Virus genome (UHGV): UHGV-0124904
Source: a virus
Reading direction: 5' to 3' (one strand)
DNA: 14,033 nt
A program made the translations under genes and the position numbers. Numbering within the stretch: position 1 is the first letter of the stretch; every line of letters begins with the position of its first letter. Shown piece after piece: positions 3,336 through 14,033 of this stretch. The notes beneath the pieces are model-generated. The model made no database searches. It saw only the letters and a list, made by a program, of their open reading frames with translations, and had not been told where the DNA came from.

Positions 3336-4184
3336 TTATTGGCCGAACGCCGCCAGGGCGTCTTCAAGTTGTTTGATATTGTCAGGGTTGATTTCTTCGG
3401 TAGCGCCCGGCGTACCTTCAGGGATGGCAGCAGCGCCTGGCTTGCTGCCGGATAAGGCTTTAAGAAGTTTTCGACGCTCAGAGCGCGGCGTATCGGTTTT
3501 GGCCAGCAGCGCATCAAGCTTGCGCAGCGCCGCCGCCGGGCTGTCGTCGTCGTCAGCAATTTCATCAGCGGAGAGGAGGCTGTCAGCAAATCCTTTCGCC
3601 ACCGCGTCACTGCCGCCAATATAGGTTTCGCCGTCCATCATCTTTTCGACGGTGGCGGCATCAAGACCGCTGCGTGCCTGGTAGATATCGCTCATCGCTT
3701 TATCAAACGGCTCCATGTCAGCGGCGATCTGCGCCAGGTCGTGACGGTTACCCATCGCATAGACCCAGCAGTTGTGGATCATCAGGAATGCACCGCGCCC
3801 GATCTGCACGTCGTCACCGGCCATCGCGATGACCGACGCCGCCGACGCTGCCAGGCCCAGCACCTTCACAGTGACCCTGCCTTCGTACTCGCGCAGCAGG
3901 TTATAAATCGCAAGGCCCTCGAACATGTCGCCGCCGGGGCTGTTGATGTTGACCGTTACGTCAGCGCCATTAAGGGAGCGCAGCGCACCAGCAATGCGGC
4001 TGGCTGTCACCCCCTCCCCCCAGAAATCAGCGCCGATCACGTCGAAGATAGAAATGCTGTTGTCACCGTCCCGGGCCGCACGGATGCCACCGTTCCAGCG
4101 CTCCATTGCCGCAGCTGGCAGATCGGGTTTTTCGCGCGCAAAAGGTCGCCCCTCCGGCGCAGCCGGAAGGCTTTTAATCGTCAT
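3336..4184 (-). CDS. Prohead maturation protease, ClpP-like serine peptidase
   Basis: 282 aa with the ClpP-like signatures NINSPGGD, GLAASAASVIA (Ser region) and MIHN (His region); Ala/Lys-rich C-terminal extension; between portal and capsid genes. Confidence 0.85.
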   Translation of the reverse strand: MTIKSLPAAPEGRPFAREKPDLPAAAMERWNGGIRAARDGDNSISIFDVIGADFWGEGVTASRIAGALRSLNGADVTVNINSPGGDMFEGLAIYNLLREYEGRVTVKVLGLAASAASVIAMAGDDVQIGRGAFLMIHNCWVYAMGNRHDLAQIAADMEPFDKAMSDIYQARSGLDAATVEKMMDGETYIGGSDAVAKGFADSLLSADEIADDDDSPAAALRKLDALLAKTDTPRSERRKLLKALSGSKPGAAAIPEGTPGATEEINPDNIKQLEDALAAFGQ

Positions 4185-4192
4185 GGATACTC

Positions 4193-5497
4193 CTAAGCCG
4201 CCTGTTTCAGCGGGGACTGTTCGAAGGGGATGTCGGGGAATACGTGGTTATGGACCTGTCGCAGCGCGAAAGCCTGTGCTGCCTGGCTGTTTTGCTTCAG
4301 GTCTTCAAGCGGCGTCAGGTTGAGCTGCACCGTATAAAGATCGCCGCCCTCAATCGGTGGCATGTTCTCCAGGCGGCGCACGTCGTTACGGGACATCCAG
4401 CCGTTCTGCAGCGCACTGGTGTAGTACGCCGCCCGGCCAGCACTGTCGGCGCGCAGCAGGCCTTCTACCGAGAACTCGGCAAAGAGGTCCTCTTCACCAT
4501 TCAGCAGACAGCGGGAAATCTCCTGCTCAATATTCACCAGCAGCGGGCGCAGCGTGTGGGTCAGGAACTGGAGATTCATCCCCTCCAGGCTCGATGCCCA
4601 GCTGCTTTGCTTCGAAGTATGCCCGACCATAAACGGTGGTACGCGGAACCAGCGGCAAATTTCCTCAATACTGAATGAGCGACTTTCCAGCATCTGGGCA
4701 TCTTCAGGGTTCATGGTGACACCCTGATATTTCAGGCCGCCCTCAAGCACCATGATTTTTCCGGCGTTTTTGGAACCGGTAAACTTCGCCATATAACCGC
4801 GAAGTCTTTCCCGCTGATCTTCGTCCAGCGCATTGTCCGATGAGAGAAACCCGGAGCTTTGCAGGCCCTGTTCAAAAATCTTTGCAGCAGATTCTTCAAC
4901 TGCCATCGCGGAGCCGATTACATCCCGACCCGTCCTCATCGGCATCATGCCGCAGACACCATCGAGACCGAACCCACGGATGTGCATCAGGTTCTTTTCG
5001 GGAATAACGCGTTTCTTGCCATCCTCGGTGTACGTGTATTCCAGCCGCCCGGTATCAAGCCGCTTCACCACCATGTTCTGGGGCAGCAGTGGCACCAGCG
5101 ACACCAGCTTATTGCCGATAAACAGCTTCTCGACAAAGGCATTTCCGCGCAGGCAGATGCTGGCCACCACCATCAACATAAAGCGCGACGGCGTCATTTC
5201 CAGGTTGGGACGGCGACAAAGCACCTGGTAAACCGGATGGTTCTGCGCCAGCTTGCGCGAGCCATCAGCCTGTCGGGTGTAAATCTTAACCGGCAGCGTG
5301 GACACCGACTCGCTCAGAAGCCGGACGCAGGCCCAGACTGCCGAAAGCTGGATCGCCCGATCTGCCGTGACGACCTTGCCGCTGCTGCTCGTGCCGTACC
5401 ACTCCTGCCAGAACGTTCCGGTAGTCAGGCTGATGGGCACGCCCAGCCAGTTGAGCAGGGCACTTTTTACCTTGCCCGGCTGCTTACTTTTCTTCAT
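4193..5497 (-). CDS. Portal protein (HK97-family)
   Basis: 434 aa; 1-nt TGATG stop/start overlap with the large terminase gene; size and position between TerL and protease are canonical. Confidence 0.85.
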   Translation of the reverse strand: MKKSKQPGKVKSALLNWLGVPISLTTGTFWQEWYGTSSSGKVVTADRAIQLSAVWACVRLLSESVSTLPVKIYTRQADGSRKLAQNHPVYQVLCRRPNLEMTPSRFMLMVVASICLRGNAFVEKLFIGNKLVSLVPLLPQNMVVKRLDTGRLEYTYTEDGKKRVIPEKNLMHIRGFGLDGVCGMMPMRTGRDVIGSAMAVEESAAKIFEQGLQSSGFLSSDNALDEDQRERLRGYMAKFTGSKNAGKIMVLEGGLKYQGVTMNPEDAQMLESRSFSIEEICRWFRVPPFMVGHTSKQSSWASSLEGMNLQFLTHTLRPLLVNIEQEISRCLLNGEEDLFAEFSVEGLLRADSAGRAAYYTSALQNGWMSRNDVRRLENMPPIEGGDLYTVQLNLTPLEDLKQNSQAAQAFALRQVHNHVFPDIPFEQSPLKQAA

Positions 5498-9343: not shown

Positions 9344-9754
9344 CTAGCAATCAGCGTCCGGGCGCGCAATAGCTCGACAAGCCCACATACAGGCTTCCTG
9401 CATTTTGGTGCGCGCGATCGACAAACTACGCAGAGCATCATCAATTTCACACGCCTGCTCAGTACTCAACATCGCTGGCCCATTACGGAGAGCCAACAGC
9501 TCACCGCGTTCGGTATCGAGCAGGCTGCAGAAGTAACGACTGACGCCCTTCATACGGTTCATGCGCTCAATGTCGCCAGGTGTTAACGTGCGGTAGCCCT
9601 TAACGGTGCTGCCATCCTGCGGTTGTGCTTCGTTCATTGATTTACCTGTGATTGATGGGCCAGCTTCGCGACGCTTCACAGCGTGGCTAACCGTGTTGTG
9701 CAGAGTGGAGAACATCATCAGGCGCTCTTCTTTAAAGCGCCTGGGGCTGCTCAC
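9344..9754 (-). CDS. Hypothetical protein translationally coupled to Rz1
   Basis: 136 aa; ATGA overlap with the Rz1 stop; C-terminus has a Cys cluster (CMWACRAIARPDADC). Start uncertain (internal Met candidates). No family recognised. Confidence 0.4.
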   Translation of the reverse strand: MSSPRRFKEERLMMFSTLHNTVSHAVKRREAGPSITGKSMNEAQPQDGSTVKGYRTLTPGDIERMNRMKGVSRYFCSLLDTERGELLALRNGPAMLSTEQACEIDDALRSLSIARTKMQEACMWACRAIARPDADC

Positions 9755-11099: not shown

Positions 11100-11135
11100 A
11101 AATGCAAAAAAGCCCTGGCAGATGCCAAGGCTTGA
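11100..11135 (-). terminator. Intrinsic terminator between the accessory operon and the lysis cassette
   Basis: Stem AGCCcTGGC(11111-11119) / AGAT / GCCAaGGCT(11124-11132) with one mismatch; minus strand continues TTTTTTGCATTT. Confidence 0.65.
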
Positions 11136-11162: not shown

Positions 11163-11588
11163 TTAAGCTGCAGAGGAAACAGTTGGAACGCAGTACTTTT
11201 GGTAATAATTTTTTATTACTGGCCTAACATGAGGTGACAGATTGAACCCACCCAGGATGCGTTGAAACGTTCCTTCGCTGCAAGGATCATGAATTCGTAT
11301 GTCCCCAGCACTGACTCGCTGGATAACCGAATCAGCACCAAAAATTTCTGCTCGCCTATAAAAGACATAACTTGGATGCCGAACAAAAGGATGATCACCA
11401 ACATTCAACAGACAAGAAGAGTCGGGTTCGATTCCGTCAGCTATAGAGGTTAAATTAACGGCAAGGAAAGATTCTTTTGCAAGTTTGGGATAAAATACGG
11501 GGTCGTTACAAATGAAGAACAAATGCTCCTTCGAACCAGAAAGGAGCATAATCGTGCCTTTTTGTACTGGGCTGAAGTCCGCTGTCAT
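11163..11588 (-). CDS. Hypothetical protein, candidate toxin/effector partner of the Panacea-domain gene
   Basis: 141 aa; ATGA start/stop overlap with the upstream Panacea-domain gene; GC-poor; no family recognised. Internal Met14 is an alternative start. Confidence 0.6.
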   Translation of the reverse strand: MTADFSPVQKGTIMLLSGSKEHLFFICNDPVFYPKLAKESFLAVNLTSIADGIEPDSSCLLNVGDHPFVRHPSYVFYRRAEIFGADSVIQRVSAGDIRIHDPCSEGTFQRILGGFNLSPHVRPVIKNYYQKYCVPTVSSAA

Positions 11589-12160
11589 TTCAATCCGTAA
11601 GCAATTGAATCTAGTTCGGAGAATTCTCTCATCCTGTCAGATAAATGTCTAACAAGTTCTTCAGGTTTTCCAAGCGCCCGGAACACATTTTCAGGATTTA
11701 TTGTAAACGCACCGCCACGTGGATCGGTCCATTCAGGACATTTTGAATGGGTATAATCCCTGATCTCCCATTTACTCATCTTACCGAAGCTTGCATAGAC
11801 GGCATCTAGAATTGAAATCTCAGCCTCACTGAGTTCATCTAAATCATCACGACTTAAGCTGTCACATAAAAGCTTAAGCTCATAATTGTCAGCATCAGAA
11901 ATCCAATTTTTCCAACCTTCTTCGCCCGTTTCTGTACCATTCATGAGGTCTAAAGAACGAGATAAGACTGGACCATGCGGCATGGCCACCATGCGGTCAC
12001 CTGTGATAGGCTCACCGAAACGGTCCATTGATTCTCTATCAGAGAGGTACATCAATTTCATGAGCTTAAGGTATGGCATGCGTCCACCGCCTTTCGACAG
12101 TAGATAGGCGGCCATCTGAGCCACTCTTTCTTCGCAAAACATATTAGCCCCCCTACTCAT
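11585..12160 (-). CDS. Panacea (DUF4065)-domain protein, likely PanA/SocA-type antitoxin
   Basis: Hallmark LKLMKLMYLSDRESMDRFGEPITGDRMVAMPHGPVLSRSL (K-L-x-K-L-x-Y...G-x-P-I...GPV pattern) plus a C-terminal ...W...DYTHS..PEW segment. Probable true start is Met7 (ATG at 12142..12140, AGGGGGG 6 nt upstream), giving 185 aa. Confidence 0.7.
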   Translation of the reverse strand: MSRGANMFCEERVAQMAAYLLSKGGGRMPYLKLMKLMYLSDRESMDRFGEPITGDRMVAMPHGPVLSRSLDLMNGTETGEEGWKNWISDADNYELKLLCDSLSRDDLDELSEAEISILDAVYASFGKMSKWEIRDYTHSKCPEWTDPRGGAFTINPENVFRALGKPEELVRHLSDRMREFSELDSIAYGLK

Positions 12161-12337
12161 ATACGATCACTACTACTATCAGCAGTATAGTCTTCAACTT
12201 AATTTTCTGTTTTCCAAATTACGCCGAATGCAAAATTTCTCTTGACTCTCTCCAAGCTCTTGCCTGGCCTAGCTTTGATGATTGTCAATACACGTTGCAT
12301 TACTAACGAGCGTCTTTGTACCACAATCATACACGTT

Positions 12338-12487
12338 TAATCCACAGGCATCTGTGGATAACCATTTGAACAAGCGTCGATCCTTATCCACAGAAACTGG
12401 AAATATCCACAGAGAGCAGCACTAAAAACAAAACTACCAATAACTCAAGGGGAAAAGCTGTGCATAAACACACCTCACTTATACACA
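12338..12487. promoter_or_regulatory. Cluster of DnaA-box consensus sites (TTATNCACA)
   Basis: Perfect 9/9 matches at 12353-12361 (minus, TTATCCACA), 12384-12392 (plus, TTATCCACA), 12459-12467 (minus, TTATGCACA) and 12479-12487 (plus, TTATACACA); 8/9 matches at 12338-12346 and 12403-12411. Includes palindrome TCCACAG-GCAT-CTGTGGA at 12341-12358. Confidence 0.6.
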
Positions 12488-12663
12488 TATGCACAATTTT
12501 GGGCTAAAAGAATTTTTGTTCGGTTTTGCCTATTGATAAATATTGCAAAAATTTAGCTCACAATTTCTTAAATCCTTTGCGTTCTAATAATTCATAAGCG
12601 AGGAAAAGTAACTTTTCTCTAAAAATCAGAGGAAGGGATTTTCAAGATGTACTGTTATTTACC

Positions 12664-12698
12664 AAATAAAAAAACCCGCTCAGGGCGGGCTTTTTAAC
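12664..12698. terminator. Bidirectional intrinsic terminator downstream of the Q-position gene (tR'-like for the minus strand)
   Basis: Stem CCCGC(12675-12679) / TCAGG / GCGGG(12685-12689), flanked by A8 on one side (12667-12674) and T5 on the other (12691-12695), so a U-run follows the hairpin on either strand. Confidence 0.7.
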
Positions 12699-12782
12699 TG
12701 TGAACATACAATGCCCATCGTTAACGTTAAATTTACACAAAAACGGCAACATTGCAAGTAACGTGAACCGAAAATATGAGAT

Positions 12783-13616
12783 TTAGAGCAAACTTTGCAC
12801 GCTGGTTACTTTCTTGAGTTCGGTATCTGCGTTGCTCTCCTCCTGAAAGCATTTCGTCACCAGACTTTCATAAAACGGCTTCCAGCTGTATCGCCAGGTA
12901 CGATCAGGAAGGCTGTCCAGTTCGGCCAGAACGCCGCGATACGCTACTGATGATTTCGGTCTGCTGTATCCTCGCCCCTCACAGCGTTTGCACTCCTTAT
13001 AAACCGGCGCGCCCTGCAACTCAGTTTGCTTTCGGTCGAGGGTTTGACCAGATCCGCCACACTGGCAGCGCTTACTGATCTGGCCGGTTCCGTTGCACTT
13101 GCCGCACAGCTGGTGGTCCACATCCTTTACCTCGCGGAAAACTTCAAAATCAGATGGAGACTGGCCCAGATCCTTGGCAAATTGAGGCAGGCGCATCGTG
13201 TAATGGCTTTTGGTGATCACACTGGTTCTGGTAATGAAGCCCTTGCCCCGGCATTTCTGGCAATTGATACTGTCAGCAGCTGATGAGGCGTAATCCTTGA
13301 ATGCGAATCTGGCGAGGATCCGCATACAGAGAGGGAATTTTTTGCCAGCTGCTTTACGTACGGCCATTGGTGCGTGCTGCTTGGCGTATTCTGTCAGCCA
13401 GTTGATAGCGGCTTCTTTATCCTGTGGGCTGATGCCAGCCTTCCCCAGATACATGGCAAGACCGATCCCGGCGTCGGCTTGGGTCATGCCCAGCGCCGCC
13501 ATGATGTCGGTTACCGTTAACTGATCGCCCGCGGTTGCGCGCACGCTATCAGAGATGTGCATCCCTTTCGGTGCAAAAAACTTTAAAACTCCGTCCAGAT
13601 TCATAGCGTTCTCCAC
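12783..13616 (-). CDS. Putative late-gene antiterminator (Q-position protein) with DnaJ-type CxxCxGxG zinc-finger repeats
   Basis: 277 aa with CQKCRGKG, CGKCNGTG, CQCGGSG and CKRCEGRG repeats. Assigned mainly by position (after a nin-region-like nuclease, before a terminator and the lysis genes); sequence-level identity to Q was not verified. Confidence 0.45.
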   Translation of the reverse strand: MENAMNLDGVLKFFAPKGMHISDSVRATAGDQLTVTDIMAALGMTQADAGIGLAMYLGKAGISPQDKEAAINWLTEYAKQHAPMAVRKAAGKKFPLCMRILARFAFKDYASSAADSINCQKCRGKGFITRTSVITKSHYTMRLPQFAKDLGQSPSDFEVFREVKDVDHQLCGKCNGTGQISKRCQCGGSGQTLDRKQTELQGAPVYKECKRCEGRGYSRPKSSVAYRGVLAELDSLPDRTWRYSWKPFYESLVTKCFQEESNADTELKKVTSVQSLL

Positions 13617-13621
13617 TCCGT

Positions 13622-13945
13622 CTACGCCAGTGCGCCGATGGCCAGCGCCCGGTCTAATGTTTTCAACAGCAGCTCCGGCTGCGTGCCGTACTTCGCTTCA
13701 AATGCCACAGCGTCAGCGTGCAATTCGTCGTGATGCTCTCTGCACAGAGGTATCACAAACAGGTCGTGTGCCTTTGTACCCATTCCACCCTGCCCGTGGC
13801 CAATCAGGTGGTGGGGGTCGTCAGCTTGCTTGTTACAGCAGACGCACGGCTGGGCCTTAACCCATCTCGTGTATTTCTCATTCACCCAGCGGCGACGCTT
13901 GGGTTTAAGCATGAAGGATTCCGGCGTCTCTGGGTCAACCTTCAT
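13622..13945 (-). CDS. YbcO/NinG-like small Cys/His-rich putative nuclease (nin-region protein)
   Basis: PCVCCNKQ...HHLIGHGQGGMGTKAHDLFVIPLCREHHDELH resembles the YbcO-family motif as recalled. Track start is a GTG at 13951; an ATG lies at 13945. The frame stays open to the window edge (14033), so the true start may lie outside the window. Confidence 0.5.
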   Translation of the reverse strand: MKVDPETPESFMLKPKRRRWVNEKYTRWVKAQPCVCCNKQADDPHHLIGHGQGGMGTKAHDLFVIPLCREHHDELHADAVAFEAKYGTQPELLLKTLDRALAIGALA

Positions 13946-14033
13946 TGCCACTATCTTTTTCGCTTTCTCCTGTACCAGTTGTTTGGCGGGTAATGCCGGA
14001 ACAATATCGCTTTCACGTGTTACCGACTGGTGG

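Follow-up and report, generated by a model that had tools for sequence, protein, structure and literature searches.

The locus described here raises the question of why a temperate phage should place a dense array of DnaA boxes, the sites recognised by the host replication initiator, directly ahead of an operon of accessory genes. The array was found in a 14,033-bp stretch of the virus genome UHGV-0124904 (this whole stretch is referred to as the window), within a long non-coding interval between the gene for an antitermination protein, Q, and a two-gene cargo operon encoding PanA, an antitoxin-like protein, and its presumed toxin partner. Judged by its sequence, the array would be an element of a known kind, a DnaA-box cluster, on a new carrier (a temperate phage) and in a new association with cargo genes. 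No such array is described in the library of literature searched on DnaA boxes in connection with prophages, toxin-antitoxin, DARS-like, lambdoid or moron elements, nor was a description found in the GenBank phage, plasmid and Escherichia coli collections searched. Whatever is said below about function goes beyond sequence, conservation and context and is inferred from them.

An exact pattern search returned four perfect TTATNCACA sites in the window, all of them within 135 bp (12353-12487), where 0.31 would be expected in the whole window and none of 200 dinucleotide shuffles reached four. These four sites, and two 8/9 variants at 12338-12346(+) and 12403-12411(+), are as a first-pass annotation of this DNA had counted them within 150 bp. 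The clustering that it noted is real but the array is slightly larger, with three further sites beginning at 12487, 12365 and 12327, and the whole extends over about 170 bp (12327-12495) and comprises four perfect boxes, three boxes with one mismatch and two weaker partners. Counting boxes with at most one mismatch, there are seven in 171 nt against 0.16 expected from shuffles.

The cargo-proximal end of the array begins with the weaker partner box I' (TCATACACG, 12327-12335, plus strand), separated by a 2-bp gap from box I (TAATCCACA, 12338-12346, plus strand, an 8/9 match). A 6-bp gap (ggcatc, 12347-12352) leads to the perfect box II (TTATCCACA, 12353-12361, minus strand), and a 3-bp gap (cca, 12362-12364) to its weaker partner box III (TTGTTCAAA, 12365-12373, minus strand), such that the core at 12327-12373 consists of two convergent double DnaA boxes, I'-I facing II-III. 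Further out follow box 3 (12384-12392, plus strand), a perfect consensus TTATCCACA read as TTATCCACAg; box 4 (ATATCCACA, ATATCCACAg, 12403-12411, plus strand), again an 8/9 match; the perfect box 5 (TTATGCACA, TTATGCACAg, 12459-12467, minus strand), which has a weak downstream partner TTTTCCCCT across a 2-bp gap (the pair spanning 12448-12467 on the minus strand); the perfect box 6 (TTATACACA, 12479-12487, plus strand); and box 7 (ATATGCACA, 12487-12495, plus strand), which has one mismatch and shares one base with box 6. The head-to-head pair reported by the first-pass annotation was borne out, although not as a 7-bp palindrome: it forms an inverted repeat with 8-nt arms, ATCCACAG at 12340-12347 and CTGTGGAT at 12352-12359, around a 4-nt spacer. 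In the cluster the extended 8-mer ATCCACAG is present in four copies, where 0.29 would be expected in the whole window.

The interval that holds the array, 12161-12782, is indeed as long and as free of open reading frames of 60 amino acids or more as had been claimed, being 622 bp in length with a longest reading frame of 47 amino acids; as the likelier start codon of PanA is the ATG at 12142, used by gene callers in most copies, the non-coding interval is more probably about 640 bp. A 43-amino-acid reading frame at 12199-12330(-) was dismissed, the lineage B copy lacking a start codon in the alignment. With regard to RNA genes, no Rfam family reached its gathering score and no tRNA was found in the interval; the matches at E<=1 were terminator-driven leader or small RNA look-alikes on the hairpin of the terminator tR' described below, together with a marginal match to SCARNA7 (E=0.91).

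Searched in both near and distant mode against GenBank phages, the complete E. coli genomes and the PLSDB plasmids, the DNA of the interval gave no match, the sole hit, in Campylobacter phages, being a 43-bp low-complexity chance similarity which was discarded. Relatives were instead recovered by exact-protein look-ups and pattern scans, which gave six diverged lineages with a homologous array, here called A (to which the window belongs), B, C, E, F and G. Each lineage retains between five and eight boxes where about 0.2 would be expected. Across the 171-column array region of the alignment, 35 of 71 box columns are invariant compared with 10 of 100 spacer columns (Fisher p=1.4e-8), a contrast to be read in the knowledge that the boxes partly anchor the alignment and that only six lineages are known, five of which were aligned. 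Within lineage A, the copy in Leclercia sp. W17 (L002, 8807-9428) differs from window positions 12161-12782 by 11 substitutions in 622 bp; seven of these fall inside the 150-bp cluster, all in spacers, and none inside any 9-mer, thus the spacers evolve faster than the rest of the interval whilst the boxes stay fixed. On this comparative evidence the boxes are under purifying selection relative to their spacers.

Individual boxes have had different histories. The core block 12327-12373 is the best conserved among lineages A, B and E (65-80% identical columns). The position of box 3 is occupied by TTATCCACA or TTATCAACA in lineages E, C, F and G and is lost in B, that of box 4 aligns with TTACACACA, TTATCAACA or TTATACACA in other lineages, that of box 5 is a strong double box in C, F and G (e.g., TTATAAACAgcTTATCCACA), and box 7 is conserved as ATATNCACA in A, E, C and F. 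Not only the boxes but also their order and the flanking non-box blocks are conserved across lineages.

In E. coli, DnaA occupies only 16 regions in vivo (Stringer, Fitzgerald and Wade 2024, PMC11317965). In almost every case the region is a double box, a pair of co-oriented boxes 2-3 bp apart of which one is near consensus, and a lone consensus box is often unbound (PMC11317965). The window holds three double-box candidates scoring at least 14/18, all inside the cluster, where 0.14 would be expected. The best of them, III-II (TTGTTCAAAtggTTATCCACA / TTGTTCAAAtggTTATCCACAg, 12353-12373), scores 15/18, which lies within the range of 13-17 seen for sites bound in E. coli by chromatin immunoprecipitation and equals the scores of the bound double boxes of datA, nrdD and DARS2 (Table 1 of PMC11317965). 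Five of the seven window boxes carry a G at position 10, as do most reference boxes in oriC (R1, R4, R5M), DARS1, DARS2 and datA, and position 5 takes any of the four bases (C, G, A, T), whether boxes are compared inside one lineage or across lineages, which is what DnaA specificity would predict. From the G at position 10, the double-box spacing and the free fifth position it was concluded that these are DnaA sites; following the sequence rules established in E. coli, they would be occupied by the DnaA of the host.

The distribution of the array among phages shows it to be portable, which the first-pass annotation had not recognised any more than the DARS-like three-box geometry of its core (below). 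Lineage A comprises the window and L001-L012, from hosts named by their sources as draft E. coli, Leclercia sp. W17 and Atlantibacter hermannii. PanA is 77% identical in lineage B (L017, L133, L134), 69% in lineage C (L016, L135-L137, Klebsiella pneumoniae) and 72% in lineage F (L274), where Q belongs to PF06530. In lineage C the array still abuts the cargo, although a methyltransferase gene lies between it and Q. Lineage E (L151, L272, Enterobacter) has a Q of PF06323 and, as cargo, an unrelated operon of 212 and 162 amino acids; lineage G (L277, L279, L281-L283, L289) has a third unrelated operon of 251 and 134 amino acids and is also present in 16 of 5,426 complete E. coli genomes, in which the interval is unannotated. 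The cargo of lineage E was missed by PADLOC, and neither that of E nor that of G has an above-threshold Pfam match. In lineage G the promoter-proximal DNA differs, and only the array part is homologous to the cassette of A, B, C, E and F. The arrays therefore precede three unrelated two-gene cargo operons, PanA and its partner being the cargo in A, B, C and F, and their upstream neighbour belongs to one of three Q families or is a methyltransferase gene, yet the array is co-oriented with the cargo in all six lineages.

Two sets of control loci bear on whether the array simply accompanies one of its neighbours. Among 80 loci with a close homolog of Q, one carries the cluster (L073, which is on the same contig as an array locus) and at two others Q is followed within 350 bp by a pair of perfect boxes. 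A profile search of genome contigs with the PanA alignment recovered only array-free PanA homologs, of at most 77% identity, and the more distant PanA loci in phages and plasmids had no boxes. Taken together, these controls indicate that the array is a property neither of Q and its late promoter PR' nor a requirement of PanA, but a unit in its own right. L138 and L139 (Enterobacter ludwigii), with a single perfect box at -291, were considered as a further instance and a homologous cassette was excluded. In lineages C, F and G the array-cargo unit is found together with a closely related gene for an N6/N4 DNA methyltransferase, which precedes the array in C and comes after the cargo in F and G (L016, 1506-2558; L273/L274, about 3750-4900; L279, 2968-4020; L289, 4837-5889), and it also follows the cargo at L273, an array-free PanA locus; these placements point to repeated rearrangement in the interval between Q and the lysis genes.

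All genes of the window, and the transcription signals described here, are on the minus strand. A DUF968 protein (13622-13951) is followed by Q (12783-13616; Pfam PF03589, E=2e-45), directly after which lies a PR'-like late promoter (12717-12757) composed of TTGCAA (12757-12752), a 16-nt spacer and TAAATT (12735-12730). A pause-type motif, AACGATGGG (12722-12714), was read from the sequence 3' of TAAATT, and the two together presumably resemble lambda PR' and its sigma-dependent pause region. An intrinsic, tR'-like terminator (12669-12695; an 11-pair stem and a T-run) ends the short late-promoter transcript; as this strong terminator is reached after only about 35 nt, the leader RNA made constitutively from the late promoter would have a length of no more than about 60 nt. 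About 500 bp of non-coding AT-rich DNA with the boxes then separates tR' from PanA, and within it the portable AT-rich control cassette (12143-12545) consists of the block ATAGGCAAAACCGAA, then the array and then the proximal conserved blocks.

The cargo operon assumed by the first-pass annotation does exist. Its first gene (11585-12142) encodes PanA, a SocA-like Panacea-domain antitoxin of 185 amino acids (Pfam PF13274 SocA_Panacea, E=2e-26), and its second (11163-11588), which overlaps the PanA stop codon, encodes the 141-amino-acid partner. The latter matched nothing in Pfam, NCBIfam or PADLOC, and PanA too was left unnamed by PADLOC and NCBIfam. The AlphaFold model of the partner (pLDDT 78) had top Foldseek matches that were all MazF/CcdB (probability up to 0.97, TM 0.45-0.50, E>=0.04), weak evidence on which it is presumed to be a toxin with a MazF/CcdB-like fold, and it may represent an unclassified family of Panacea-associated toxins; its conserved residues include H22, C27, D56, C59, H66, C103 and C133. 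A further intrinsic terminator (11110-11133) closes the cargo unit ahead of the holin gene, after which come lysozyme, Rz, an Acb2/Tad1-like protein, an HNH nuclease and an HK97-type head module. The Acb2/Tad1 hairpin domain (PF24729, E=1.4e-16) is encoded just after the lysis genes by the reading frame 9344-9754(-), and it suggests a sponge for cyclic-nucleotide defence signals.

GC content falls to 34-44% across the insert (34-40% in the control cassette) compared with about 55% in the phage, and because of this drop and its own terminator the insert can be regarded as a classical moron in the Q-to-lysis interval of a lambdoid prophage. Like the promoter-gene-terminator units known as phage morons, it is a low-GC insert of atypical base composition with its own terminator and with -10-like elements, placed between Q/tR' and the holin gene, and it would have a promoter of its own; the array forms the distal part of the moron control region, with boxes 200-350 bp upstream of PanA. 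In the library searched, no moron is described in which, as here, a shared cassette of host-initiator sites has been reused for three unrelated cargo operons.

What, then, would such an array do? As it stays 5' of the cargo while both neighbour and cargo change, a link to cargo transcription is favoured, and the reading that we put forward is DnaA-dependent control of cargo transcription, for and against which we consider the case evenly balanced; both the effect and its sign are hypothesised. In a single-copy prophage, DnaA, which in E. coli binds consensus boxes in both its nucleotide forms, would occupy the consensus boxes in either form, binding cooperatively at the double boxes and above all at III-II (12353-12373). 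Once the remaining boxes were filled, a nucleoprotein complex about 170 bp long would form and set the amount of RNA polymerase that reaches the cargo genes. One route would be control of a promoter that boxes I and I' overlap where the array ends on its proximal side, another a roadblock to polymerase that has started at the constitutive late promoter and escaped termination at tR', and both routes could operate together. Cargo output would then track the pool of free DnaA, which would shift as the replication status and the copy number of box-carrying phage genomes change.

There are two conserved -10-like elements to which such control might apply, and both should be considered as leads only, candidates read from sequence. 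The first, a candidate extended -10 with the pattern TGnTAnAAn (TGGTACAAA, 12315-12323, minus strand), lies at the proximal edge of the array; its TG.TA.AA is invariant in the five-lineage alignment and in five lineages it stands 26-28 bp from box II. At that distance box II would fall near -49, and the -35/spacer region would lie under boxes I and I'. The second, CTATACT (12184-12190, minus strand), stands some 42 nt ahead of the PanA start codon, in the block of the control region that ranks second in conservation; every one of lineages A, B, E, C and F retains CTATA(C/A)T, which G lacks, and we take the element to be a -10 of the sigma-70/sigma-S type with C at -13. A conserved TTGACA (12288-12283) was tried as a -35 element and rejected, as the pairing fails, the hexamers at 17 bp being AGGCAA, TGGCAA, CGGTAA and TCATAG.

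The double boxes of the E. coli DnaA regulon (nrdA, polA, purH, nrdD, dnaA, mioC) are the closest precedents for a DnaA-controlled operon. They too combine a weak box, a 2-3-bp gap and a co-oriented TTATCCACAg, and the window site likewise lies upstream of an operon and scores like the bound sites. For the roadblock route there are also known cases, insofar as they are represented by references 27-29 in PMC11317965, which the locus resembles in having boxes downstream of a constitutive late promoter and terminator and within the transcribed path; in those known cases one box is used, however, whereas here there is an array in both orientations and termination is only hypothesised.

Several observations weigh against control of the cargo by DnaA. 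A consensus scan of the interval for sigma-70 promoters gave no match, a home-made position weight matrix scan of five lineages gave no position-conserved promoter, and TGGTACAAA, which neither scan found or ranked, is without the normally critical T at -7. The boxes are 115-350 bp from the start codons, which is far for simple repression at CTATACT. E. coli DnaA-regulated promoters carry a single double box (PMC11317965), situated near the promoter, whereas the window has three candidates and four more boxes over 170 bp, in an array 200-350 bp from the start codon; moreover, the known multi-box clusters outside origins, datA, DARS1 and DARS2, modulate DnaA itself (PMC11317965, PMC5742627). 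PanA-toxin pairs of 54-77% identity adjoin unrelated, box-free upstream DNA in Citrobacter, Klebsiella aerogenes, Salmonella, Xenorhabdus, Photorhabdus and several phages, and DnaA control is therefore not needed by the cargo. Finally, physical linkage over a few hundred base pairs could keep array and cargo together in six lineages with no functional tie between them. Of the DnaA-regulated cargo promoter suggested by the first-pass annotation, what stands is the conservation of the boxes, the double box and the fixed 5' position; a convincing sigma-70 promoter over the boxes is what is missing.

A broader possibility, which we regard as rather unlikely, is that the prophage carries in this array a device for reading or altering the state of the host initiator, either as a regenerator of ATP-DnaA or as an occupancy switch. 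As a regenerator, the head-to-head core of the type found in DnaA-reactivating sequences (DARS), present in lineages A, B and E, would remake ATP-DnaA from a mobile element. As a switch, occupancy at one copy per cell would keep the toxic or defence-type cargo and the downstream lysis genes insulated until free DnaA collapsed, whether through titration by phage or superinfecting DNA or through disturbed replication, and DnaA would thereby serve as the sensor for a toxin-antitoxin or abortive-infection-like cargo.

By analogy with DARS1 and DARS2, the head-to-head core I-II-III might itself cause ADP-DnaA to release its nucleotide, so that ATP-DnaA would be raised mildly in the lysogen and strongly after amplification of the phage genome; its nearness to the cargo would then be a coincidence or reflect a second role, as for DARS1, which lies in the promoter region of uvrB. 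We consider this explanation unlikely. The DARS core has three boxes, with box I opposite to II and III and equal spacing in DARS1 and DARS2 (PMC5742627, PMC6868365), and the spacer lengths are invariant across E. coli strains (PMC4585315). Read on the plus strand, the window core is TAATCCACA-ggcatc-TGTGGATAA-cca-TTTGAACAA, compared with TTATCCACT-attcc-TGTGGATAA-cca-TGTGTATTA in DARS1 and TTATTCACC-ttttc-TGTGGATAG-agt-TGTGAAGAA in DARS2. The orientation pattern is that of DARS (12338(+), 12353(-), 12365(-)) with a consensus box II, boxes II and III stand 3 bp apart in the window, as in DARS, and do so in lineages B and E too, lineage E has exactly the DARS gaps of 5 and 3, and it is this I-II-III block that is best conserved in lineages A, B and E. 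The likeness extends to the 'cca' of the II-III gap, as in DARS1, to the further boxes on the box III side, as in DARS2, and to a non-coding position adjoining a promoter region, as DARS1 adjoins uvrB.

However, the I-II gap, a defining feature, departs from 5 bp both in the window (6 bp) and in lineage B (4 bp), and a 3-bp co-oriented pair is a general double box that is not specific to DARS (PMC11317965). In lineages C and F box I has been lost at this position, another convergent double-box pair lying further upstream with a 9-bp gap, and lineage G is without a close head-to-head pair, yet the array is kept in all three; as the three-box unit is missing there, it is not a universal feature of the arrays. 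DARS2 would also need a site for integration host factor (IHF), and no match to the IHF consensus WATCAANNNNTTR with at most one mismatch was found in 12161-12782; IHF and Fis consensus sites are thus both lacking from the element, and the array sits in a prophage cargo module as opposed to a fixed chromosomal position. Since the window departs from DARS in one feature and the unit is not shared by all lineages, a DARS-like function is kept as a rival only.

The three-box unit itself is of wider interest. A metagenome scan for head-to-head pairs returned at least 120 stretches (L152-L271) with 99 unique contexts, 64 of which have the 5-bp gap; in 49 of these 64 a third box lies exactly 3 bp from box II and in none at another offset, which lends some weight to the comparison with DARS. 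Units of this DARS type (box III, 3 bp, TTATCCACA, 5 bp, inverted TAATCCACA) are frequent in metagenome contigs with a GC content of 0.24-0.75 and adjoin genes resembling priA, rmuC, selD, acs and gltA, as far as reading frames could be read by eye. These units may be unrecognised DARS-like loci outside the Enterobacteria. The scan suggests that the architecture is widespread well beyond that group, which bears on the question of whether further DARS loci exist. In L238, L239 and L240 the same 50-nt head-to-head context, TATTTAAGTGAC-TTATCCACAGCTTTCTGTGGATTA-GTTACAGGTT, is repeated two, five and six times per locus, respectively, as a recurrent element built around convergent DnaA boxes.

Another explanation is that the array is a passive sink which titrates DnaA after induction, offering at least seven sites per copy, and which is near neutral in the lysogen; host re-initiation would be shut down and the DnaA regulon (e.g., nrdAB, dnaA) shifted in favour of the phage. 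Clusters of DnaA boxes in Bacillus subtilis and Streptomyces act on DnaA availability, and the multi-box cluster datA does so in E. coli. A paper on the Streptomyces cluster is among the entries in the reference list of PMC5742627. The high density of strong boxes in the array is in keeping with a sink, as is its conservation whichever cargo follows, and it resembles datA in having several strong boxes clustered in non-coding DNA on which many DnaA molecules could be held. Nonetheless, a sink needs no fixed place or orientation, but the array is always just 5' of the cargo operon and co-oriented with it, it is part of the low-GC cargo module and not of the replication module, and its box order and flanking non-box blocks are conserved as well. 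datA, furthermore, spans about 1 kb and needs an IHF site between its boxes 2 and 3, and with no such site here the array is not a datA-type site of ATP hydrolysis. We judge titration to be distinctly unlikely as the function of the array.

It is very improbable that the boxes are bound by some other phage or host protein with a specificity like that of DnaA. The four best boxes do share the extended motif ATCCACAG, and some copies share 11 nt (TTATCCACAGA), which is longer than the 9-mer; however, the G of this extension is present in most reference E. coli boxes, the fifth position varies as DnaA predicts, and partner boxes stand at the 2-3-bp spacing needed by DnaA dimers (PMC11317965). PanA has no detected DNA-binding domain, and no phage factor can be seen that would be common to the carrier prophages, whose regulatory and replication genes differ.

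Least credible of all is the origin-like element of the first-pass annotation, read here as a second DnaA-dependent origin or helicase-loading site for the phage, which we reject because the same prophage has iterons in its rep gene. Consensus boxes are found at plasmid and phage origins such as P1 oriR, pSC101, F and RK2, and the array resembles these in carrying such boxes on a mobile element beside AT-rich DNA (34% GC in the adjoining stretch), in a phage whose replication module has an initiator-like gene and no helicase-loader among its called genes. The origin-type iterons, however, are six 15-bp-spaced repeats of TGACCCGTCAAAATC inside that rep gene (L001:3923-4052; HTH_36/Phg_2220_C), some 5 kb further upstream, beyond the window; DnaA boxes are absent from their surroundings, and no helicase-loader gene is called beside them. 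The array region differs from the plasmid and phage origins in being without iterons, a Rep gene or a DNA unwinding element: the boxes are the only repeats of the interval, no 13-mer match with up to two mismatches lies beside the array, and the IHF site is absent, as noted above. The array also travels with cargo modules between phages of different replication modules.

Box clusters of other kinds were seen on unrelated viral contigs. In the high-GC L148 four boxes with 11-13-bp spacing (11425-11468) stand beside a long GCGCGTGGGC tandem array, and in the low-GC L280 boxes lie between GGGTGATGA iterons; both of these are probably origins. L278 and L285 each have four perfect TTATCCACA boxes, two facing two, and in L286 a small gene is preceded by eight boxes.

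Few clusters of DnaA boxes are known outside origins and these have been studied closely, and each of datA, DARS1 and DARS2 has reshaped the view of replication control. At least one of the three cargo operons behind the arrays is a toxin-antitoxin pair, and the 16 complete E. coli genomes with the lineage G array make the hypothesis directly testable in E. coli. If it is true, prophages would tie the expression of their accessory genes to the replication-initiation status of the host, or would manipulate that status.

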